57,325 bases of DNA from a virus. Position 1 is the first letter of the stretch, and every line of letters begins with the position of its first letter. Where the stretch lies: the IMG/VR virus record IMGVR_UViG_3300031867_000069; one strand, given 5' to 3'. This document shows positions 19,248 through 57,325 of the stretch, piece by piece. Position numbers and translations under genes: made by a program. The notes beneath the pieces were generated by a model. It ran no database searches. It was not told the DNA's origin and saw only the letters and a list, made by a program, of their open reading frames with translations.

Positions 19248-19508
19248 ATGAAGATTGAAAAGCAGGATATGGTTAACCATCCTAGCCATTATATTTCCAA
19301 GACAGGTCTCGAAACTATCGATGTTATCGAGGCTTTTACTGATGCCCTTAAGGGTATTGAAGCTACAGACACAGGCAATATCATTAAGTATATTTGCCGT
19401 TGGAAAGGTAAGAATGGAGTCGAGGATTTAAAGAAAGCTCAATGGTACTTGAACCATCTTATCGAACATGTTGAAAAAACTACTAAAAAGGAGAATAAAT
19501 TATCATGA
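19248..19508 (+). CDS. DUF3310-like phage protein (86 aa)
   Basis: The pattern VNHPSHY...ETIDVIEAF...GNIIKYICRWKGKNG.EDLKKAQWYLNHLI matches the DUF3310 signature as I recall it. Confidence 0.6.
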   Translation: MKIEKQDMVNHPSHYISKTGLETIDVIEAFTDALKGIEATDTGNIIKYICRWKGKNGVEDLKKAQWYLNHLIEHVEKTTKKENKLS

Positions 19509-20446
19509 AAAAATTAAAAATCACAAAAAATGTAACTAGAGCTTTTGGTAAAGCTAAACTACAGCTAAAAAAGCATAGTCCAGAAATCTTGGTTATTTCT
19601 GGTGTTGTTGGCACAGTTGCAGCAGGTGTAATGGCTTGTAAAGCAACTACTAAGGCTTCTGATATTTTGGAAGAAATGCATGAATCTATGGATCAGATTC
19701 ATAAAGTAAATGAAATGGCGGAAGAAAATGAAAACATTTCTTATGATGAAAACGATCTTAAGAAAGACACAACTATGGTTTATGTTCAGACAGGCGTTAA
19801 GTTTGCTAAACTTTATGGTCCTTCTTTAGCCGTTGGTATTCTATCAATCACTAGCATTCTTGTTGGTCATAACATCCTTCGCAAGAGAAATCTAGCGTTA
19901 GCAGCTGCTTACACAACCGTTTCTAATAGCTTTAAAGCTTATAGAGATCGTGTTGTGGATCGTTTCGGTAAAGATCTAGATCGTGAATTACGTTATGATG
20001 TTAAAGCAAAAGAAGTAGAAGAAACTGTTGTTGATGAAAACGGCAATGAAACTACTGTTAAGAATACTGTGAATGTTATTGATCCTAACCAAGTAAGCGA
20101 CTTCGCTCGAATCTTTGACGATGGTAACATTGGATGGGAAAAAGATTCCGAACACAATCTGGCATTCCTTAAGATGCAACAGAATTACGCGAATGATATT
20201 CTACAAACCAGAGGATATCTGTTCCTGAATGAAGTTTATGACATGCTTGGCTTTAACAGAACTAAAGCTGGTCAAGTAGTTGGCTGGTATTATGACGAGA
20301 AAAATCCAACTGGTGATAACTTCGTTGACTTTGGTATTTATCGTGGTGAATCTCCAGCAGTTAGAGCATTTGTTAACGGTGACGAACGTAGCATCTTGCT
20401 AGACTTTAATGTTGATGGTGAAATTCTTAACAGAGTATATGAATAA
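19505..20446 (+). CDS. Membrane-anchored protein, paralog of 17252..18025 (313 aa)
   Basis: Shares the N-terminal TM module and the RNLALAAAYT / RNAALATAYQ segment with 17252. ATGA overlap with the upstream gene. Confidence 0.7.
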   Translation: MKKLKITKNVTRAFGKAKLQLKKHSPEILVISGVVGTVAAGVMACKATTKASDILEEMHESMDQIHKVNEMAEENENISYDENDLKKDTTMVYVQTGVKFAKLYGPSLAVGILSITSILVGHNILRKRNLALAAAYTTVSNSFKAYRDRVVDRFGKDLDRELRYDVKAKEVEETVVDENGNETTVKNTVNVIDPNQVSDFARIFDDGNIGWEKDSEHNLAFLKMQQNYANDILQTRGYLFLNEVYDMLGFNRTKAGQVVGWYYDEKNPTGDNFVDFGIYRGESPAVRAFVNGDERSILLDFNVDGEILNRVYE

Positions 20447-21322: not shown

Positions 21323-21873
21323 TTCTTGATAGCAATTTCGCTGATTGGATTGCTAACGATTACTTTGAATGGATTTGTAGTAAAGTATGTGAAAATAGAT
21401 TTCATGAAGAAGTATCTTTTAGAAAACTTCTAATGTGCTTACATGATATTGAATTCACATATATTATTAAAAATGATGTAAATCGTGAAGAAGATGGTTT
21501 AAATCTACGTTATAGATACTGTCTTCTTCATGACCACATGGATGATTTGCATTATTTAAATGGTCCATGTAGTGTGCTAGAAATAATGGTTGCTTTGGCA
21601 ATAAGATGCGAAGAAGATTTCATGTCTGACACCCGTTTAGGTAATCGTACCGCACAATGGTTTTGGAACATGATAGTTAGTTTGGGACTTGGATCTCAAA
21701 TTGATTATAATTTCGACAGAGAGTATGTTGAAAAAACTATCGACAGATTTCTTAATAGAAAGTACGAACGAAATGGAAAAGGCGGTTTGTTCACTGTTAG
21801 GAATTGTAAATATGACTTACGTAAAGTTGAAATATGGTGTCAAATGAACTGGTACCTAGACAACTTTGATTGA
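21319..21873 (+). CDS. Hypothetical protein (184 aa)
   Basis: ATGA overlap with the upstream gene. It sits immediately upstream of the replicase. Confidence 0.6.
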   Translation: MILDSNFADWIANDYFEWICSKVCENRFHEEVSFRKLLMCLHDIEFTYIIKNDVNREEDGLNLRYRYCLLHDHMDDLHYLNGPCSVLEIMVALAIRCEEDFMSDTRLGNRTAQWFWNMIVSLGLGSQIDYNFDREYVEKTIDRFLNRKYERNGKGGLFTVRNCKYDLRKVEIWCQMNWYLDNFD

Positions 21874-21891: not shown

Positions 21892-24800
21892 ATGATTGAT
21901 TTTTTAATGATTTCCACACGTAGTCCGAAACGTGGAATTATAGAAATCTATCCTAAATTCATTATTAAAGAAACTTCTGATCTAATGATTAGAGGTGGTG
22001 ATTTTTATGCAGTTTGGATAGACGAATTAGGTTTATGGTCCACTAGAGAACAAGATGCTTTACAACTTATAGACCACGAATTAAAAAAATACACTGAAGA
22101 AAACAAAAGTAAATTCGATGGACTTGTAAAGACTCTTTATATGTGGGATGCAGAATCAGGCATGATTGACCGATGGCATAAATATTGTCAAAAGCAAATG
22201 AGAGACAATTATGTCATGCTTGATGAAAAACTTATATTCTCTAATACTAAGACCACTAAAAAAGACTACGCTAGTAAAAGATTAAGCTATCCTCTTGAAT
22301 CGGGCGACTTCCCCGCATATGAAAAGATAATGTCTACTTTATATTCTCCAGAAGAACGTCATAAAATAGAATGGGCTATAGGTTCTATTGTTACTGGAGA
22401 TAGTAAAACTATACAAAAATTCATGGTTCTTTACGGAGCTGCTGGTACAGGTAAATCAACAATATTGAATATTATCCAACAATTATTTGAAGGATATTAT
22501 TCGGTATTCGACGCCAAAGCTTTAGGATCATCTACCAATGCCTTTGCATTGGAAGCATTTAAAAATAATCCTTTAGTAGGCATTCAACATGACGGTGACT
22601 TATCAAGAATCGAAGATAATACTAGGCTTAATAGTTTGGTTTCTCACGAACTTATGACGGTTAATGAGAAATTTAAGAGCACTTATTCCAATAGGTTTAA
22701 GTGCTTTCTTTTTATGGGCACTAATAAACCTGTAAAAATTACAGACGGTAAATCTGGTTTACTTCGAAGATTAATTGATGTTACTCCATCTGGTAATAAA
22801 CTTAGTTTTCGAGAATACAACACTGCTATAAAGCAGGTGCCATTTGAGCTGGGGTTTATTGCCAACCATTGCAAAGAAGTATATTTGAGCGATCCAGCTA
22901 AGTACGACGATTATATTCCTATTTCAATGATGGGAGCTTCGAACGATTTCTATAACTTTATTATAGATTCATACCATATATTCAAGAAGGAAAATGGAAC
23001 TACTCTAAAGCAAGCATGGGCTTTGTATAACACATATTGTGAAGAGGCTAGAGTTCCATATCCATTCTCGAAAAGGAGTTTTAAAGAGGAACTAAAAAAC
23101 TACTTCTGGGATTTCAAAGAAAGATTTATATCCGAAGATGGTTCCAGAGTACGAAGTTATTATGTTGGTTTTAGAACCGATAAATTTGAAGATGAAAAAA
23201 ATCCGGAGGGCAAAAATGATAAAAACAAAGTAAATCTTATCAGTTTCAAAGAACAGCCATCTATATTTGATACTTATTGTGCGGATTGCATTGCTCAATA
23301 TTCAACTCCGAATGAAATTCCGAACCAACCTTGGGATAAAGTAACAACTAAACTTTCAGACATCAACACATCAAAACTTCACTTCGTTAAAGTGCCTTTG
23401 AATCATATTGTCATTGACTTTGATATTAAAGGACCAGATGGTAAAAAGAGTTTTGAACGAAACTTAGAAGCGGCTAGTAAATGGCCTGCTACTTATGCTG
23501 AACTAAGTAAGTCTGGAGCAGGAATTCATCTTCATTATATTTATAGTGGAGATCCAACGAAATTAAGTAGTGTGTATGATGAGAACATTGAAGTTAAAGT
23601 ATTCAAAGGTAAATCTTCTCTTAGAAGAAGATTAACTAAATGCAATGACTTGTCAATAACTACTATTACGTCTGGATTACCTTTGAAAGGAGATACCAAA
23701 ATGATAAACAGGGAGGCTGTTAAAACCGAAAAAGGTATTCGTACTTTAATCAAGCGAAACCTCAATAAGGAATACCATCCTGGGACAAAACCAAGCATCG
23801 ACTTCATTTATAAGATATTAGAAGATGCTTACAATCAAGGACTTAAATATGATGTGTCCGATATGAAAAATGCAGTAATTGCTTTTGCCGCTGGCAGTAC
23901 ACATAAAGCCGATTATTGTTTGAGGCTTGTTGGCAAGATGAAATTTAAATCAGAAGAACAGTCCAAAGTTAAGGATGAAGACAAGACTTTAGTATTCTAT
24001 GATATTGAAGTCTTTCCTAATCTATTCTTAGTCAACTGGAAAGCAGCCGGCAAAGGAAAACCTGTTGTGAGAATGATTAATCCTTCTTCAGAAGAAATTG
24101 AAGACCTATTAAAGTTCAGACTTATAGGTTTCAATTGTCGTAGATACGATAATCATATTTTGTATGCTCGTTTAATGGGTTATACAAATGAACAGCTATA
24201 TAATCTATCACAAAAGATTATATCTGGTGATCGTAATGCATTCTTTGGCGAAGCTTACAATCTATCCTATACGGATGTTTATGACTTTTGTGCGAAAAAG
24301 CAATCCCTTAAAAAATGGGAAATCGAACTAGGTATTCATCATAAAGAATTAGGATTGCCTTGGGATCAACCTGTTCCAGAAGATATGTGGATTAAGGTGG
24401 CAGAATATTGCGATAATGATGTTATTGCTACTGAAGCCGTATTCGATACTAGACAGTCAGACTTTGTTGCTAGAGAAGTTCTAGCTGATGTGGCAGGAAT
24501 GACTGTTAACGATACAACTAACAGTCTTACAACTAGAATTATATTTGGTAAGAATAAGAAACCTCAATCTTCATTTAACTATAGAGACATGGGTGACATG
24601 TCTATACCTCATCAAAAATTCATAATAACAAAGGATATGGATTTATATCCTAATGATGAATTTGATGATTTTACAATATTTGATGAAGAAAATCGTCCTT
24701 TATTTCCGGGTTATAAATATGAAGCCGGAAAATCAACATATCGCGGTGAGGAAATCGGCGAAGGAGGTTATGTATATGCCGAACCAGGCATGTACAAAAA

Positions 24801-25842
24801 TATTGCCTTACTTGATATTGCTAGTATGCACCCTAGCAGTATTGTAGCAGAGAGACTATTCGGTGATTACACTGATAGATTTCAAGATATTTTGAATGCC
24901 CGTATTGCCATTAAGCATAAAGACTTTGAAAAAGCAAGAACCATGCTTAATGGTGCTTTGGCGAAGTATCTAACCAATGAAGAATCTGCAGCAGATCTAG
25001 CTCAAGCGCTAAAGATTGCCATAAATTCAGTTTATGGATTAACCTCAGCGCGATTCGATAATCCTTTTAGGGATATTCGAAATAAGGACAATATAGTTGC
25101 AAAACGTGGAGCTTTGTTCATGGTAAACCTTAAACATGAGGTTCAAAAAAGAGGATTTACAGTGGCACACATTAAAACGGATTCAATTAAAATTCCTGAT
25201 GCCACACCCGAAATCATTCAGTTTGTCATGGATTATGGCAAAATGTATGGTTATAATTTCGAGCATGAAGCCACTTATGACAGAATGTGCCTAGTCAACG
25301 ATGCTGTATATATTGCCAAATACGATAATGGTGAATGGACCGCTACAGGTACTCAATTCCAAGTGCCATATGTATTCAAAACTCTATTTTCACATGAACC
25401 AATTGAATTCAAAGACATGTGTGAAACAAAGTCAGTATCAAAAGGTGATTTATATTTGGATATGAACGAAAAACTTCCAGAAGACGAACACAATTATATT
25501 TTCGTCGGACGAGTTGGTAGTTTCTGTCCAATTAAGCCTGAACATAATGGCGGCATTCTATATCGTGTTAATGATGGCAAGTATTATGCAGCTGCCGGAA
25601 CAAAGGGTTACCGTTGGTTAGAAGCGGAAACCGTTAAGGTTCTAGAAAAAGAAGATTCCATTGATAGAACTTATTACGAAGCTTTAGTTCATGATGCAGT
25701 TACTGATATTTCGAAGTATGGCGATTTTGATTGGTTTGTTAATGGCTCAACTAAGATTCAGGAATCTGATTCTAATGATATTCCACCTTGGGAAGTCGAT
25801 CCTAGAATGGTTCTTCCTGATGACACATTTGATAAAAGATAA
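21892..25842 (+). CDS. Fusion replicase: P-loop (SF3/D5-like) helicase + AEP primase-polymerase + family B DNA polymerase with 3'-5' exonuclease (1316 aa)
   Basis: Helicase Walker A is VLYGAAGTGKST. The archaeo-eukaryotic primase (AEP) motifs are VIDFDIK and AGIHLHYIY. The exonuclease motifs are ExoI FYDIEV, ExoII FNCRRYDNHIL and ExoIII YCDNDVIATE. The PolB motifs are A LLDIASMHPSS, B KIAINSVYGL and C HIKTDSIKI. Confidence 0.85.
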   Translation: MIDFLMISTRSPKRGIIEIYPKFIIKETSDLMIRGGDFYAVWIDELGLWSTREQDALQLIDHELKKYTEENKSKFDGLVKTLYMWDAESGMIDRWHKYCQKQMRDNYVMLDEKLIFSNTKTTKKDYASKRLSYPLESGDFPAYEKIMSTLYSPEERHKIEWAIGSIVTGDSKTIQKFMVLYGAAGTGKSTILNIIQQLFEGYYSVFDAKALGSSTNAFALEAFKNNPLVGIQHDGDLSRIEDNTRLNSLVSHELMTVNEKFKSTYSNRFKCFLFMGTNKPVKITDGKSGLLRRLIDVTPSGNKLSFREYNTAIKQVPFELGFIANHCKEVYLSDPAKYDDYIPISMMGASNDFYNFIIDSYHIFKKENGTTLKQAWALYNTYCEEARVPYPFSKRSFKEELKNYFWDFKERFISEDGSRVRSYYVGFRTDKFEDEKNPEGKNDKNKVNLISFKEQPSIFDTYCADCIAQYSTPNEIPNQPWDKVTTKLSDINTSKLHFVKVPLNHIVIDFDIKGPDGKKSFERNLEAASKWPATYAELSKSGAGIHLHYIYSGDPTKLSSVYDENIEVKVFKGKSSLRRRLTKCNDLSITTITSGLPLKGDTKMINREAVKTEKGIRTLIKRNLNKEYHPGTKPSIDFIYKILEDAYNQGLKYDVSDMKNAVIAFAAGSTHKADYCLRLVGKMKFKSEEQSKVKDEDKTLVFYDIEVFPNLFLVNWKAAGKGKPVVRMINPSSEEIEDLLKFRLIGFNCRRYDNHILYARLMGYTNEQLYNLSQKIISGDRNAFFGEAYNLSYTDVYDFCAKKQSLKKWEIELGIHHKELGLPWDQPVPEDMWIKVAEYCDNDVIATEAVFDTRQSDFVAREVLADVAGMTVNDTTNSLTTRIIFGKNKKPQSSFNYRDMGDMSIPHQKFIITKDMDLYPNDEFDDFTIFDEENRPLFPGYKYEAGKSTYRGEEIGEGGYVYAEPGMYKNIALLDIASMHPSSIVAERLFGDYTDRFQDILNARIAIKHKDFEKARTMLNGALAKYLTNEESAADLAQALKIAINSVYGLTSARFDNPFRDIRNKDNIVAKRGALFMVNLKHEVQKRGFTVAHIKTDSIKIPDATPEIIQFVMDYGKMYGYNFEHEATYDRMCLVNDAVYIAKYDNGEWTATGTQFQVPYVFKTLFSHEPIEFKDMCETKSVSKGDLYLDMNEKLPEDEHNYIFVGRVGSFCPIKPEHNGGILYRVNDGKYYAAAGTKGYRWLEAETVKVLEKEDSIDRTYYEALVHDAVTDISKYGDFDWFVNGSTKIQESDSNDIPPWEVDPRMVLPDDTFDKR

Positions 25843-25870: not shown

Positions 25871-26350
25871 ATGGAACTAACTTATGCACCTAGAGAAATT
25901 TTACAGATTGATGATGCTAAGATCATCTACAGAAACTTTGCAGGCAGAGGCGACAAGTATAATCGCGAAGGCGATAGAAACTTTGCCGTTGTTATCCCTG
26001 ATCAAAAAATAGCTAATGAGCTTATTGATAGAGGCTGGAATGTTAAGATCAAGCCACCTCGTGATGAAGATGACGAGCCATTTATGTACTTACCCGTTAA
26101 GGTTAAGTTTAATGATAGAGGCCCTCATGTATATTTGGTTACCGGTAAAAACAAGAATCGTCTAAGAGATGACGCAATTGCATGCCTTGATGACATTGAT
26201 ATTTCCAGAGTTGATCTGGACATTAGACCTTATGATTGGGAAGTAAATGGCAAAACAGGTAGAACTGCATATTTACAAAACATTCAGGTGGTTCAGGAAA
26301 TCGACCGTTTTGCGGCAATCTATGCCGAGGAAGAATATCCTGAGGAATAA
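25871..26350 (+). CDS. Putative ssDNA-binding protein with acidic C-terminal tail (159 aa)
   Basis: Positioned after the polymerase. The C-terminal tail is IYAEEEYPEE. The pattern YNREGDRNF..V.....A..L...GWNVK...LDI.PYDW..NGKTG.TAYL is one I recall from phage SSB-like families. Confidence 0.45.
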   Translation: MELTYAPREILQIDDAKIIYRNFAGRGDKYNREGDRNFAVVIPDQKIANELIDRGWNVKIKPPRDEDDEPFMYLPVKVKFNDRGPHVYLVTGKNKNRLRDDAIACLDDIDISRVDLDIRPYDWEVNGKTGRTAYLQNIQVVQEIDRFAAIYAEEEYPEE

Positions 26351-27353: not shown

Positions 27354-27551
27354 ATGAGCAAGCAATTAGTTTTAGCATGTGATTATTGCATACATAAAAG
27401 CGTATGCGGGAAAAAACATCTTTTTGAAGGTGCACAGAAAGATCTTGAACAATTTAATGTTCTAAAGATTATTAATGATAAAGATTGGATTACAGTCCAA
27501 CCTTTAAAATGTTCATATTATTTAGGTTACAGTGATATCAGTGATGAGTAA
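27354..27551 (+). CDS. Cys-containing small protein (65 aa)
   Basis: ATG 27354 lies after GAGG. Contains CDYCIHKSVCG. Confidence 0.5.
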   Translation: MSKQLVLACDYCIHKSVCGKKHLFEGAQKDLEQFNVLKIINDKDWITVQPLKCSYYLGYSDISDE

Positions 27552-28770
27552 AGATTTTTTATATAGCTATCAAAAAAAGGCTGTTGATCAAATGAAAAAC
27601 GGCTGCATACTTAATGGCGGGGTCGGTTCTGGTAAATCTAGGACTGGCCTTTACTATTATTTCAAAGAACAAGGTGGATCTATTGATTCTAAATATATAG
27701 AGATGAAGAATCCTAAAGATCTTTATATCATCACGACTGCTATGAAAAGAGATAGCTTAGAATGGGAAGGCGAATTGGCTAATTTCTTATTGACTACTAA
27801 TAAGGACGAAGCCATTTACCATAATCATACTGTTGTAATCGATAGTTGGAATAATATTAAGAAGTATGCTGATATTAAGAATTCATTCTTTATATTTGAC
27901 GAGGATAGGGTCACAGGCAAAGGTGTTTGGGTTAAATCTTTTCTTAAGATAGCAAAATCTAATGATTGGATTATATTATCAGCAACCCCAGGAGACACAT
28001 GGGAACAATATATTCCTGTGTTTATTGCGAACGGATTTTACAAAAACAAAACGGAATTCCTTAGGGAACACGTTATCTTTTGTAGATATACAAAATTCCC
28101 TAAAATCGACAGATATATTAATACAGGAAGACTCATTCGTCTACGTAATAAGATATTAGTCGATATGGATTTTACCAGAAATACTATAGCACATCATGAA
28201 GATGTGTATGTCAGGTATGATATTTCGAAGTACAAGGATGCCATCAGAACTAGATGGAATCCGTTTAAAGATGAACCAATACGACAAGCATCGGATCTAT
28301 GCTATGTTTTAAGAAGAATTGTAAACAGCGATGAGTCTAGACAAATTGCTTTGCTTGAGTTATTTGAAAAACATCCTAGAATGATTGTTTTCTATAACTT
28401 TGATTACGAGCTTGATATTTTAAAAGGATTGTATTATGGAGAAAACGTTGATGTTGCGGAGTGGAATGGACATGCTCATAATCCTATACCAACTTCTAAA
28501 CAATGGGTATATCTTGTGCAATATACTGCCGGATGCGAAGGATGGAATTGCATCAAAACAGACACTATTGTCTTCTACTCTCAAAACTATTCCTATAAGG
28601 TTATGGCGCAAGCCTCCGGGCGTATTGACCGTCTCAATACTCCGTTCAGGGATTTATATTATTACCATATTAAATCTAGAAGTGGAATTGACTTGGCCAT
28701 CAGTAAAGCATTATCAAACAAAAAGAAGTTTAATGAAAGAAGATGGTATGATAAATTTGCAAATGATTGA
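27544..28770 (+). CDS. SF2 (DEAD/SNF2-like) helicase (408 aa)
   Basis: Motif I is LNGGVGSGKSRT, motif II is FFIFDEDRV and motif III is ILSATPG. ATG 27544 overlaps the upstream stop by 8 nt. Confidence 0.75.
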   Translation: MSKDFLYSYQKKAVDQMKNGCILNGGVGSGKSRTGLYYYFKEQGGSIDSKYIEMKNPKDLYIITTAMKRDSLEWEGELANFLLTTNKDEAIYHNHTVVIDSWNNIKKYADIKNSFFIFDEDRVTGKGVWVKSFLKIAKSNDWIILSATPGDTWEQYIPVFIANGFYKNKTEFLREHVIFCRYTKFPKIDRYINTGRLIRLRNKILVDMDFTRNTIAHHEDVYVRYDISKYKDAIRTRWNPFKDEPIRQASDLCYVLRRIVNSDESRQIALLELFEKHPRMIVFYNFDYELDILKGLYYGENVDVAEWNGHAHNPIPTSKQWVYLVQYTAGCEGWNCIKTDTIVFYSQNYSYKVMAQASGRIDRLNTPFRDLYYYHIKSRSGIDLAISKALSNKKKFNERRWYDKFAND

Positions 28771-32461: not shown

Positions 32462-32528
32462 ATATTTAAAGCGTGGCTAACGGGGAACCACCCATTGGAA
32501 TCCCGTGGGAAACATTTCAAAAATATAA

Positions 32529-32557
32529 TACGCGAAAAATACATAGCGTATTATGAG
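32529..32557 (+). promoter_or_regulatory. Promoter-like motif TACGCG-N17-TATGAG with no ORF downstream
   Basis: It lies between the P4-P6 and P7 halves of the intron core. No SD or credible ORF follows in the next ~300 nt. Confidence 0.4.
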
Positions 32558-32834
32558 AAATAGACTTGTGAAGACAAATGACACATGAATTTGCGGTTTG
32601 TATATTTTATACAAATTGAGAGAAGTGAGAAACCTGATATCGGATCATAGGAAAATGAGACTATGTGAACATAGCAAGTTCTATTCTTTTTTATTTTTGA
32701 AACGAACCTGTAGAGGCTATCCCCTATGCCTTCTGGGCGGGGGAGTAGGGCTACTATTGATACGTAGCTGGATTTTAGGAAACGAAGTCCATGAAAACCG
32801 AAATGGTGTCCTATTGTTTTGAATTTGTGTGTGA

Positions 32835-55000: not shown

Positions 55001-57325
55001 CGTCAAAAACTTTCGAATCATCAGGTCTATTAGCTATGCTTATTGGAATTGCTGGCGCGATACTTCTAATTGCGATAGCAGTTAAAATGCTAGGTGGATT
55101 GAATCAAGATCAAGCGATTCAAGGGTTCATAGGTGTTGGTCTAATAGCAACTGCTATAGCCGGCGTGATTTTAGTGTTTGGCAAAGTAGTTAAAGGACAG
55201 TCCGCAAAAAATATAGATGGACTTGGAAAAATGTTAGTCAAAATGTCAGTCGCTATACTATTAATGGCTATTGTTATTAAAATGCTTGGACGTTTGGAAA
55301 CTAAAGCACTAGTACAAGGCTTTGCTGCTATGATGGGATTTGTAGGCATTATAGCTTTATTAACATTAATAGCAAAAATGTCTGGCGGTGCCATTGAGTC
55401 AGTTGGTAAAACCATGATACAATTTGCAGCAGCCATGTTGCTAATGGCTGTAGTTATTGGTATTTTAGGTCATATGGATCCGCAAAAATTAGCTAAAGGT
55501 TATGTTGCTATGCTAGGATTTGTTGGAATTATAGCATTGTTAACATTGATTACGAAATTAGCTGGGTATGGAACAATGGAACGATTGAGCACTGTGTTAC
55601 TATCAATGTCCGCTTCTATGTTTATAATGACCATAGTTATGTCATTATTGGGCCATATGGATCCTAGTGTAATGGCAAAAGGTATTGTTGGAATAGGTTT
55701 GTTGGTTGGCGTTATAGCATTATTAGTATACATAACGAAATTAGCTGGTAAAGATTCAGCTAAAATATCATCTACCCTTTTAGCCATGTCTGCTTCTATA
55801 GCAATATTGGCAGCTGTTGCTGTTGTGTTAAGTTTATTAGATATCGGTTCATTAGTTAAAGGTATAGTTGCTGTTGGTATATTGACATCTTTTATGGTCG
55901 GTCTTATTTACGTAACAAAGTATGCGCAAGACAGCATGAAAAACATTATTGCACTTACAGTAGCCGTTGCTGTAATGGCCGCGGCAGTTGTTGTTTTATC
56001 GTTAATAGATACAAGCAAATTAGTCCCAGCAGTGGCCGGAATGATATTCATGATGACATCATTTGGCGTAATGTGTAAGCTAGCTTCTAACATAAATTCT
56101 AGTTTGCCATCATTAATTATTATGGTTGGTGTCGTCGCAATATTAGCTGGCGTTGTTGTTTTATTATCAACATTACAAGTAGAAAGTGTAATGGGTTCAG
56201 CTATTTCGTTATCTGCATTATTATTAGCTGTTTCTGCCGCTATGTTTATAGTTAGCAAAGTACCAGTAGCTAGTGCTTTACAAGGCGCATTAGGATTGTT
56301 AGCAATGGCCGTCCCTCTTTTAGCATTTGTCGGCATTCTATATTTAATGAATAATGTGCAAAATGCATTAACTAATGCTATGGCGCTGACTTTATTAGCA
56401 GGAGCATTAACTTTAATGTTGATACCTTTGACTTTAATCGGATCACTTATTGCTCCGGCGTTACTTGGCGTGCTAGCTTTATTAGCCATGGCGGTACCAC
56501 TAGTTGCGTTTGTTGGCGTTCTATATTTAATGGAAGGTTTGCAAAATGCTATGGCTAACGTAATTATATTAACGACATTGTTGAACGCGTTGACTAGTTC
56601 ATTATTGATCGTTAGTTTATTAGGTCCGTTAGCAATAATTGGCGTTGTGGCTTTAACGGCTATGATAGGTTTGGTTGGTATAATGGGCGCGTTCATGGTG
56701 GCAATAGGGGCTTTAAATGAATATTGCCCAATGCTGCAAACTTTCTTAGAGAAATCATTACCTATTCTCGAACTTTTAGGTCAAGGAATAGGCCGATTCT
56801 TAGGCGGTTTAGTTACCGGAATATTGGATTCTTTAGACTTATCAGGATTGACAAAAATAGGAAACGATTTATCTATGTTTATGATGAGTTTACAACCTTT
56901 TATACTCGGAGCAAATATGATAGACGCCAAATGTATGGAAGGTGTCAAATCGTTAGCCATGATGATTGTCATATTAACTGCGGCTAAGGTTTTGGATGGT
57001 CTTACTTCTTGGCTTACTGGGGGCTCATCATTAGCCGATTTCGGTAAAGAATTAGTTCCATTTGGTATATCATTGGCAGCGTTTGCGGCGACAACTGCTG
57101 GTATAAATGGAGATCAAATAAAGAAAGTAGCGCAAGCAACTAAAATATTAGCTGAAATGGCTTCGGAAATTCCAAATAAAGGCGGACTTGTTGCATGTAT
57201 AACAGGTGACAATAGTCTTGCTGAATTTGGTAAGGAACTTATAAGTTTTGGCCCTTACTTAGCTATGTATTCCATGTCTGTAGCAACTGTTAATACTGAT
57301 CTAGTTAAAAACTCAGCCAAAGCAG
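52048..57325 (+). CDS. Tail tape measure protein, N-terminal 1759 codons (continues at 1..1576; 2274 aa in total)
   Basis: ATG 52048 overlaps the upstream TGA. There is no stop in this frame to the window end, and the ORF is missing from the supplied track. Contains NFTEMTRNIGTFTAAGVKLK...QLMDWKSVENAGMGG and a GIHSPS motif. Hydrophobic repeats span about 54.8-56.7 kb. Confidence 0.9.
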   Translation, partial: MSKTIDERVVEMRFDNKQFESNVNQTMSTLDKFKQKLNLSGASKGLEEVGRSAKNVDVSSISSGLDSVKAKFSALQVMGVTALANITNSAVNAGKRLVSAFTIDPVKSGFEEYETQINSVQTILANTQKEGTKIGDVNKALDELNLYADKTIYNFTEMTRNIGTFTAAGVKLKTSVSSIQGIANLAAVSGSNAQQASTAMYQLSQALAAGKVQLMDWKSVENAGMGGQVFQDALKKTAKEHGVAVDEIIKKSGSFRESLQKGWITSKILTETLGKMTKSGAAEYLAKLTGVTQKEITAAQKAVETNKDGSASYDKLAEKMAKSGKITKKEALETLKMADTAEDAATKVKTFSQLMDTLKEAAQSGWSQTWRILVGDFEEAKDLFTPLNDFFSGIINNISNARNAMLKSALGKSFKKLGEEITAITKHIKKTADGVKEASKSLEKYGEIVNQIIRGDWGNGQERFDKLTKAGYDWAHAQNLVNEKLGDSTRYETKYAEAKNKSSKVQGDSAKSQSKNLEALTKMSDAELKHIGLNDKEIKSLRQLKKEADKVGMSVSNFSANIDNINGRWLIFDSFKTIGKSLVKVLHSVKDAWDEVFHGTTDNNKIANQRAKSLYNLIAAFHKLSMKLKVNDETADKIKRTFKGLFAIIKLITSITGGTFKTVFTVAQNVLGAFNLDILDVTASVGDVLVKFSDWVSQNSLLTKAIKFLTPYITIAVKAVKDWINAIIESGVAQKVFDGFVSFLKSAFSSIKGWIIAIKDSEIAQNIISGLVNGLKTGASSAWDAIVWLGTTLLEKIKAILGIHSPSTEFFEIGGNIISGLFNGLKNGASWIYDFITDLGSKIINIVKNLDIGTVIAGILAGGMFVGIKKSFDFIELISEPLHGLNKIFDSVAGVIKASQKGIAKSLKGLAKTFKAFAFKMRMDAIKDLVISVTILIAALIVLAHQDTDKLWDAVGVLGAVVGMLAALVVITEVCTKSSTKIDAASKTFESSGLLAMLIGIAGAILLIAIAVKMLGGLNQDQAIQGFIGVGLIATAIAGVILVFGKVVKGQSAKNIDGLGKMLVKMSVAILLMAIVIKMLGRLETKALVQGFAAMMGFVGIIALLTLIAKMSGGAIESVGKTMIQFAAAMLLMAVVIGILGHMDPQKLAKGYVAMLGFVGIIALLTLITKLAGYGTMERLSTVLLSMSASMFIMTIVMSLLGHMDPSVMAKGIVGIGLLVGVIALLVYITKLAGKDSAKISSTLLAMSASIAILAAVAVVLSLLDIGSLVKGIVAVGILTSFMVGLIYVTKYAQDSMKNIIALTVAVAVMAAAVVVLSLIDTSKLVPAVAGMIFMMTSFGVMCKLASNINSSLPSLIIMVGVVAILAGVVVLLSTLQVESVMGSAISLSALLLAVSAAMFIVSKVPVASALQGALGLLAMAVPLLAFVGILYLMNNVQNALTNAMALTLLAGALTLMLIPLTLIGSLIAPALLGVLALLAMAVPLVAFVGVLYLMEGLQNAMANVIILTTLLNALTSSLLIVSLLGPLAIIGVVALTAMIGLVGIMGAFMVAIGALNEYCPMLQTFLEKSLPILELLGQGIGRFLGGLVTGILDSLDLSGLTKIGNDLSMFMMSLQPFILGANMIDAKCMEGVKSLAMMIVILTAAKVLDGLTSWLTGGSSLADFGKELVPFGISLAAFAATTAGINGDQIKKVAQATKILAEMASEIPNKGGLVACITGDNSLAEFGKELISFGPYLAMYSMSVATVNTDLVKNSAKA
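57297..57325. repeat. 29-nt terminal overlap identical to bases 1-29 (circular closure or terminal redundancy of the assembly)
   Basis: tgatctagttaaaaactcagccaaagcag occurs at both ends. Joining them keeps the TMP frame intact. Confidence 0.9.

Follow-up and report, generated by a model that had tools for sequence, protein, structure and literature searches.

A predicted all-in-one phage replicase of the HelPrimPolB/GP55 family with a D5-type helicase module placed ahead of its primase

Positions 21,892 to 25,842 of the IMG/VR virus record IMGVR_UViG_3300031867_000069, a stretch of 57,325 nucleotides (the window hereafter), raise the question of whether helicase, primase and proofreading DNA polymerase domains are truly encoded there within one chain, and, if so, whether this arrangement is new. 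A preliminary description, made from the sequence and its open reading frames (ORFs) prior to any database search, had read the region as a single 1316-residue polypeptide with a P-loop helicase at the N-terminus, an archaeo-eukaryotic primase (AEP) in the middle and a B-family DNA polymerase (PolB) at the C-terminus. We find that the gene very probably codes for a phage all-in-one replicase, an ortholog of GP55 of Lactococcus phage 1706 from the group named HelPrimPolB, with activities predicted by homology. It is thereby an ordinary member of a known and very common family.

21892..25842, + strand: replicase gene, HelPrimPolB/GP55-family member; 1316 residues plus stop, from the ORF list and translation

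The initial issue is whether this ORF might be an artefact in which a missed frameshift or stop, a danger the preliminary description itself had raised, merged two or three genes such as those for a helicase-primase and a polymerase. Separate genes of this kind do exist: some relatives (L103, L105, L115 and L091) have a helicase-primase-exonuclease ORF of 912-928 residues followed by a polymerase ORF of 413-426 residues, and more distant phages carry a stand-alone PolB gene beside a separate primase-helicase gene. Against this, the region on the + strand is one ORF of 1316 codons with zero internal stops, and it shows no change of frame relative to 252 records of the phage collection, each with a single match that covers 80% or more of the query, or to 122 divergent full-length representatives (1238-1520 residues) that align to it over its whole length. 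These representatives stand for clusters at 50% identity and form the basis of all the residue-conservation counts given below. Moreover, independent assemblies yield near-identical proteins of 1316-1323 residues. Merger of genes, to which we accord practically no probability, is already refuted by the sequence, and the single polypeptide stands. Its start is marked by a GGGG-rich ribosome-binding site approximately 12 nt 5' of the ATG, and Met1 and the N-terminal residues are kept in the aligned homologs; the TGA stop of the upstream gene ends at 21873, while the downstream gene, with its own AAGGAG site, starts at 25871, leaving a gap of 28 nt from the replicase stop.

Membership in the family is evident from end-to-end matches. 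Residues 2-1292 align with positions 1-1294 of PHROG 4210 ('DNA polymerase', profile length 1304) at E=0, and a BLASTP comparison with GP55 of phage 1706 is colinear over residues 19-1286, with 39% identity and 882 bits. The closest isolated phage is the Faecalibacterium phage FP_oengus, whose 'helicase/polymerase' (AUV56521.1) is 61% identical, followed by actinophage 'DNA primase/polymerase' genes at 47-53% and the Lactococcus 1706-like phages at 37-39%. The family comprises at least 8000 clusters at 90% identity and occurs in at least 414 IMG/VR contigs; among the matches listed, the closest is 98% identical. With residues 1-690 as the query, 1428 representatives (50% identity) were recovered at E <=1e-3 and 396 at E <=1e-30. 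Conversely, a megablast search of the phage collection with 20 kb around the replicase gene found nothing, so that the relatives are detectable at the protein level only.

The fusion has a published history. The helicase-primase-polymerase fusion was noted by Kazlauskas et al. 2016 (PMC4889955), who found 94% of primase-helicase fusions to have an N-terminal primase. The name HelPrimPolB comes from Kazlauskas et al. 2020 (PMC7544198), in whose analysis the group falls, as a divergent member, within the EpsilonN-like clade in the main RNA/DNA-primed PolB cluster and shows 'profound' differences in MotifC and KxY. GP55 (1317 residues) was purified by Zhang et al. 2025 (PMC12205980), who described a 'four-in-one replicase' with four activities: a UTP/dTTP-dependent helicase lost in K189A; an RNA primase that prefers the site CCAAC, initiates with GTP and is lost in D509A, Y655A and F667A; a 3'-5' exonuclease lost in D712A/E714A; and a DNA polymerase lost in D949A. 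The same work reported strand displacement, de novo replication of M13 single-stranded DNA (ssDNA) and a dimer in solution. The window protein is like GP55 in length and in the order superfamily 3 (SF3) helicase, PriS-like AEP, alpha-helical accessory domain (aHD), exonuclease and PolB, and has the equivalents of all the GP55 loss-of-function residues: K188 (aligned with GP55 K189), D511 (D509), Y653 (Y655), F665 (F667), D704/E706 (D712/E714) and D975 (D949). Thus, the domains and their helicase-first order hold as the preliminary description had them: rather than being N-terminal as in the canonical D5-like order, the AEP domain occupies residues 453-601, after a helicase at 1-430. This order is indeed unusual, in agreement with the 94% figure, a remark that had already been published. 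The novelty that had been implied does not survive: the literature already covers the architecture, the helicase-before-primase order and the unusual motif C, and GP55 has been assayed.

We then asked what each part of the chain is. The helicase module comprises three features:

21892..22221, + strand: N-terminal alpha/beta domain, residues 1 to ~110, apparent counterpart, from the structural model only, of the collar (D5N-like) region before the ATPase in D5-type helicases
22222..22926, + strand: SF3 (AAA+) helicase core, residues ~111-345, with Walker A K188, Walker B D234, sensor-1 N278 and arginine finger R292/R293; from Pfam, fold and conservation
22927..23181, + strand: C-terminal domain closing the helicase module, residues ~346-430, made up of helices and a beta hairpin; from the secondary structure of the model and structural alignments

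The Walker A motif that the preliminary description had put near residue 183 is GAAGTGKST at 182-190, within a match to Pfam DUF5906 (the D5/P4-type P-loop) at 180-292 (E=1.6e-13). Searches of Pfam with the whole protein and with residues 440-690 and 1-143 recovered DUF5906 alone, with no match to AEP or D5_N and with PolB below threshold; folds were thus required to assign the AEP and the collar. A structural model of residues 1-440 (predicted local distance difference test score, pLDDT, 92.9) matches the SaPI5 primase-helicase with Z 21.9 over 379 aligned residues, from its residue 1 onward and to chain residues 316-748. It matches residues 324-780 of vaccinia D5 with Z 18.4 from model residue 7, the monkeypox virus (MPXV) E5 with Z 18-19, and the African swine fever virus (ASFV) C962R and the C-terminal region of the NrS-1 protein with Z 17-19. 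Papillomavirus E1 and adeno-associated virus Rep40 align to model residues ~110-345, while residues ~346-430 are covered by alignments to the C-terminal regions of the SaPI5, MPXV E5, D5 and ASFV primase-helicases. At the sequence level, a family profile run against the PDB retrieved the SaPI5 primase-helicase chain (4.5e-15), and the C-terminal (helicase) halves of primase-helicase PHROGs align to residues ~120-445. K188, N278, R292 and R293 are present in 122/122 representatives. The N-terminal helicase is thus a D5-type SF3 fold, with Z close to 22. Because the fold match to the helicase modules of SaPI5, D5, E5, ASFV and NrS-1 is near end-to-end, residues 1-430 are, as modeled, a complete D5-type unit of collar-like N-terminal domain, SF3 ATPase and C-terminal domain. 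By analogy with relatives (Kazlauskas 2016, PMC4889955), the last of these would have a DNA-binding role.

The helicase module is followed by two domains:

23248..23694, + strand: AEP/primase-polymerase (Prim-Pol; PriS-like) primase core, residues 453-601, with motif I D509xD511, motif II S539...H546 and probable motif III E567; from fold and conservation
23701..23961, + strand: aHD, residues 604-690, four helices, with Y653 and F665; from the model and alignment to GP55

Motif I reads VIDFDIK at 507-513 and motif II SGAGIHLHYIY at 541-551, and the N-terminal (primase) part of PHROG 3022 aligns weakly to residues 459-569. In the model of residues 440-690 (pLDDT 93.4), model residues 14-162, i.e. 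residues 453-601 of the protein, match the NrS-1 Prim-Pol (6a9w) with Z 9.8, 143 aligned residues and a root-mean-square deviation of 3.6. The same residues match pRN1 ORF904 with Z 6.4-6.9 (Foldseek E=1.6e-5), and more weakly (Z 5.7-6.5) Prim-PolC, the LigD PolDom, the S-2L PrimPol and CAPP. D509, D511, S539 and H546 occur in all of the representatives, i.e. the DxD and SxxGxxH motifs are invariant, and E567 in 121/122. The AEP core that had been read at residues ~500-545 is thereby borne out. Profile support had been named as the touchstone for both N-terminal assignments: Pfam does support the helicase, while the AEP is missed by Pfam and supported by its fold. The aHD model gave only generic helical-repeat matches (Z <=6.8) and no specific match in the PDB, in agreement with the GP55 paper, which describes the domain as being devoid of a known relative (PMC12205980). 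Y653 and F665 are each kept in 117/122 representatives.

A Prim-Pol fold by itself need not denote a replicative primase. The domain might instead be a Prim-Pol acting in repair or translesion synthesis, or an initiator, with priming left to the host or another phage protein: repair roles are known for many Prim-Pols (PMC4538821), and the present domain both escapes recognition by Pfam and is without the usual PriL or helix-bundle partner. Nevertheless, the RNA primers made by GP55 are extended by its own PolB and are abolished by D509A (PMC12205980), the AEP catalytic residues along with Y653 and F665 of the aHD are kept here and family-wide, and no other primase match was found among those neighboring ORFs that were scanned. 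Hence, we regard a role other than replicative priming as improbable.

The remainder of the chain is occupied by the polymerase:

23980..24561, + strand: PolB 3'-5' exonuclease domain, residues ~697-890, with ExoI D704/E706, ExoII N748/D753 and ExoIII Y839/D843; from GP55 alignment, conservation and PHROG 1252
24703..25761, + strand: PolB palm, fingers and thumb, residues 938 to ~1290, with motif A D975, motif B K1041/N1045/Y1048/G1049 and motif C K1095-T-D1097-S; from the family profile and GP55 alignment

PHROG 1252, a stand-alone phage PolB family, matches residues 684-1154 (1e-48), and the family profile retrieves from the PDB E. coli Pol II (3.4e-6), Pol alpha (~5e-3) and archaeal PolBs. 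All the elements of a complete family B polymerase named in the preliminary description were found: ExoI is FYDIEVFPN at 702-710, ExoII GFNCRRYDNH at 746-755, ExoIII YCDNDV at 839-844, motif A DIASMHPS at 975-982, motif B KIAINSVYG at 1041-1049 and motif C KTDS at 1095-1098. D704/E706, D753, Y839/D843, D975, K1041/N1045/Y1048/G1049 and D1097 are present in every one of the 122 representatives. The departure of motif C from the usual DTDS had been singled out; the residues are as stated, but they are not peculiar to this protein, as K1095 is shared by 119/122 representatives and the active GP55 also has KTDS. The KTDS motif C is hence the family norm, and it does not preclude activity, since the motif requires its second aspartate only, as work on primer-independent PolBs (piPolBs) has established. 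As the nearest stand-alone PolBs, those of Efquatrovirus, the Nonagvirus JenP1 and Staphylococcus phage HHU-22, read NTD at this position, the loss of the first aspartate is older than the fusion.

Could the altered motif C instead reflect a different mode of initiation, that of a protein-primed (phi29-like) or primer-independent (piPolB-like) polymerase? The piPolBs likewise lack the first aspartate (TTD), and the GP55 paper (PMC12205980) aligned its motifs with the phi29 DNA polymerase. The family profile, in contrast, retrieves Pol II, Pol alpha and archaeal PolBs from the PDB, and no chain of phi29 type at E up to 1; HelPrimPolB lies in the EpsilonN-like clade of the main RNA/DNA-primed cluster, apart from the cluster that joins protein-primed PolBs and piPolBs (PMC7544198); de novo synthesis by GP55 requires its own AEP domain (PMC12205980); and with NTD in the nearest stand-alone relatives and KTD in the replicase, neither reads TTD. 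We accordingly consider such an initiation mode most unlikely, and the sequence comparisons are consistent with a polymerase of the RNA/DNA-primed main group rather than of the protein-primed group.

Several points weigh against equating this protein with GP55. At 39% identity to the assayed enzyme, its activities are predictions, and it may not share the nucleotide preference, priming site or oligomeric state of GP55. Relative to GP55, it has a 34-residue insertion (902-937), and the stretch at ~1186-1240 is different and shorter. The PolB part is assigned from sequence and not from a fold model, and E567 is a probable AEP motif III by its position only. There is also a difference in source: GP55 comes from a dairy phage, while the present replicase is from a gut metagenome phage and is known from its sequence.

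Comparison with other systems helps place the assignment as a GP55-type replicase in context. The homologs in FP_oengus and in Arthrobacter, Gordonia, Streptomyces and Curtobacterium phages are full-length and colinear (47-61% identity), and are encoded, as in the window phage, in siphophage genomes of ~55-60 kb with the same replication module; they differ in host phylum, and their annotations name two activities only. The D5-type primase-helicases, namely vaccinia D5 and MPXV E5, ASFV C962R, NrS-1 gp28, SaPI5 PriRep and pRN1 ORF904, are built of the same blocks (AEP/Prim-Pol core, collar, SF3 ATPase, C-terminal domain), with structural Z scores to the replicase of roughly 18-22 for the helicase module and 7-10 for the AEP. 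Unlike them, the replicase has the helicase module first and the AEP second, an unrelated aHD in place of the helix-bundle/PriCT accessory domain, and a complete PolB fused at the C-terminus.

The nearest unfused polymerases are the stand-alone PolBs (PHROG 1252) of Efquatrovirus (Enterococcus), Nonagvirus (E. coli JenP1) and Staphylococcus phage HHU-22, which at 22-24% identity have the same Exo and Pol motifs. They are devoid of helicase and primase domains, and a separate neighbor codes for a primase-helicase (HHU-22) or a processivity factor (JenP1). In HHU-22 (L003:2992-6570), a distant relative, a stand-alone PolB of 583 residues is followed directly by a separate 608-residue 'DNA primase' with D5_N and DUF5906 in its C-terminal half, i.e. 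in the canonical order. This layout may resemble the ancestral state before fusion. The one other design known to combine helicase, primase and polymerase in a single chain is Pas55 of Actinoplanes phage phiAsp2, which combines an SF3 helicase with a DnaG primase and PolA (PMC4889955). Compared by description only, it differs from the replicase in having non-homologous primase and polymerase families.

Beyond the domains themselves, the linker between exonuclease and polymerase is a site of variation:

24595..24702, + strand: variable insertion of 34-36 residues (902-937) in the linker between exonuclease and palm, missing in GP55; from a gap in the GP55 alignment

The insertion is also present in the aligned gut-phage relatives. 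Eight mutually divergent representatives from the 50%-identity clustering (40-46% identical to each other) end at the equivalent of residues 886-905. An alignment query located the split loci. In three of them from IMG/VR (L103, L105 and L115), a 912-residue Hel-Prim-Exo ORF and a 413-residue ORF are separated by a spacer of ~530-600 nt; the second ORF, which shares 63% identity with the polymerase half, has its start precisely at the FPGY of residue 938. The spacer has a small ORF and a 39-46 nt match to window positions 32519-32564. Spacer coordinates are L103:7709-8237 and L091:7727-8309, and the ORF in the latter resembles, by eye, an HNH-type homing endonuclease. Gene 43 of some T4-like phages is likewise split. 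We conclude that mobile cassettes recurrently enter the exonuclease/polymerase linker, at the same point where this protein has its insertion, and that the gene is intact in this window.

The spacers of L103 (7747-7816) and L105 (7824-7893) also gave matches of 34-43 bits to the Rfam tRNA model (gathering threshold 29). ARAGORN called no tRNA at these matches, which may represent a tRNA-like element or a chance match. One further candidate, L079, had been taken up as an intein- or intron-bearing copy on account of a match span of 4.8 kb; it was rejected, its ORF being an ordinary one of 1392 residues. A search of IMG/VR for close relatives of P0228 found none.

The genomic neighborhood is that of a replication module in a siphophage-like genome of ~57.3 kb with all genes on one strand. 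Bases 1-29 recur at 57297-57325, and this 29-nt terminal overlap suggests a circularly closed assembly and hence a complete phage genome of ~57.3 kb. The long ORF that leaves the window at its 3' end (from 52048) probably carries on into the ORF at 2-1576, which is open at its 5' end. Two genes downstream of the replicase are relevant:

25871..26350, + strand: ssDNA-binding/annealing protein, probable partner of the replicase; Pfam PF24083 Phage_ssDNA_bind 5e-51 and PHROG 4787
27532..28770, + strand: second helicase gene of the replication module, separate from the replicase; PHROG 62 'DNA helicase' 2.9e-54

A gene for an ssDNA-binding or annealing protein likewise lies shortly 3' of the replicase in phage 1706, FP_oengus and the Curtobacterium phage Daddyjeff, and the second helicase gene is syntenic with orf67 of phage 1706 and the 'helicase' of FP_oengus. 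Phage 1706 and the window phage thus share both downstream genes, and a YonO-like RNA polymerase is found in both. Upstream of the replicase, a 313-residue DUF6353 protein (PHROG 2152; 19505-20446) is conserved here and in FP_oengus; DUF6353 was not detected in orf53 of phage 1706. A possible relationship of this protein to the JenP1 'processivity factor' was discarded, as no similarity was found between them. The GP55 priming site CCAAC gave no signal in the window, with 26 occurrences on the + strand against a Markov expectation of 24 and 65 on the - strand against 76; the asymmetry between the strands follows from a pronounced G>C skew on the coding strand.

Drawing on GP55, we propose that the N-terminal D5-type SF3 helicase module would unwind DNA and provide strand displacement, that the central AEP core together with the aHD would make short RNA primers on the single-stranded template, and that the C-terminal PolB would extend these primers with deoxynucleoside triphosphates, proofreading by means of its 3'-5' exonuclease. 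Along with the replicase, the ssDNA-binding protein encoded next to it and the second helicase probably make up the full replication module. As every solved relative of the D5-type unit works as a ring hexamer, the solution dimer of GP55 may not be the working form. It is a tentative and rather unlikely idea, pertaining to the whole family and not to this protein in particular, that on DNA the enzymes might form a hexameric ring with six primase and six polymerase heads, in which the flexible exonuclease/polymerase linker lets the polymerase heads act in trans.

For annotation, our findings mean that this gene should be named as a HelPrimPolB/GP55-type replicase (SF3 helicase, AEP primase, PolB) and not as a 'DUF5906 protein' or just a 'DNA polymerase'. 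The practical interest of the family is as a self-priming, strand-displacing enzyme for DNA synthesis, a line that GP55 has already opened. What the present analysis adds is confined to two points, namely that residues 1-430 would form a whole D5-type helicase module, permuted relative to the primase, and that the exonuclease/polymerase linker is a recurrent site of insertion and splitting in a family of replicases that is abundant in gut and soil phages.

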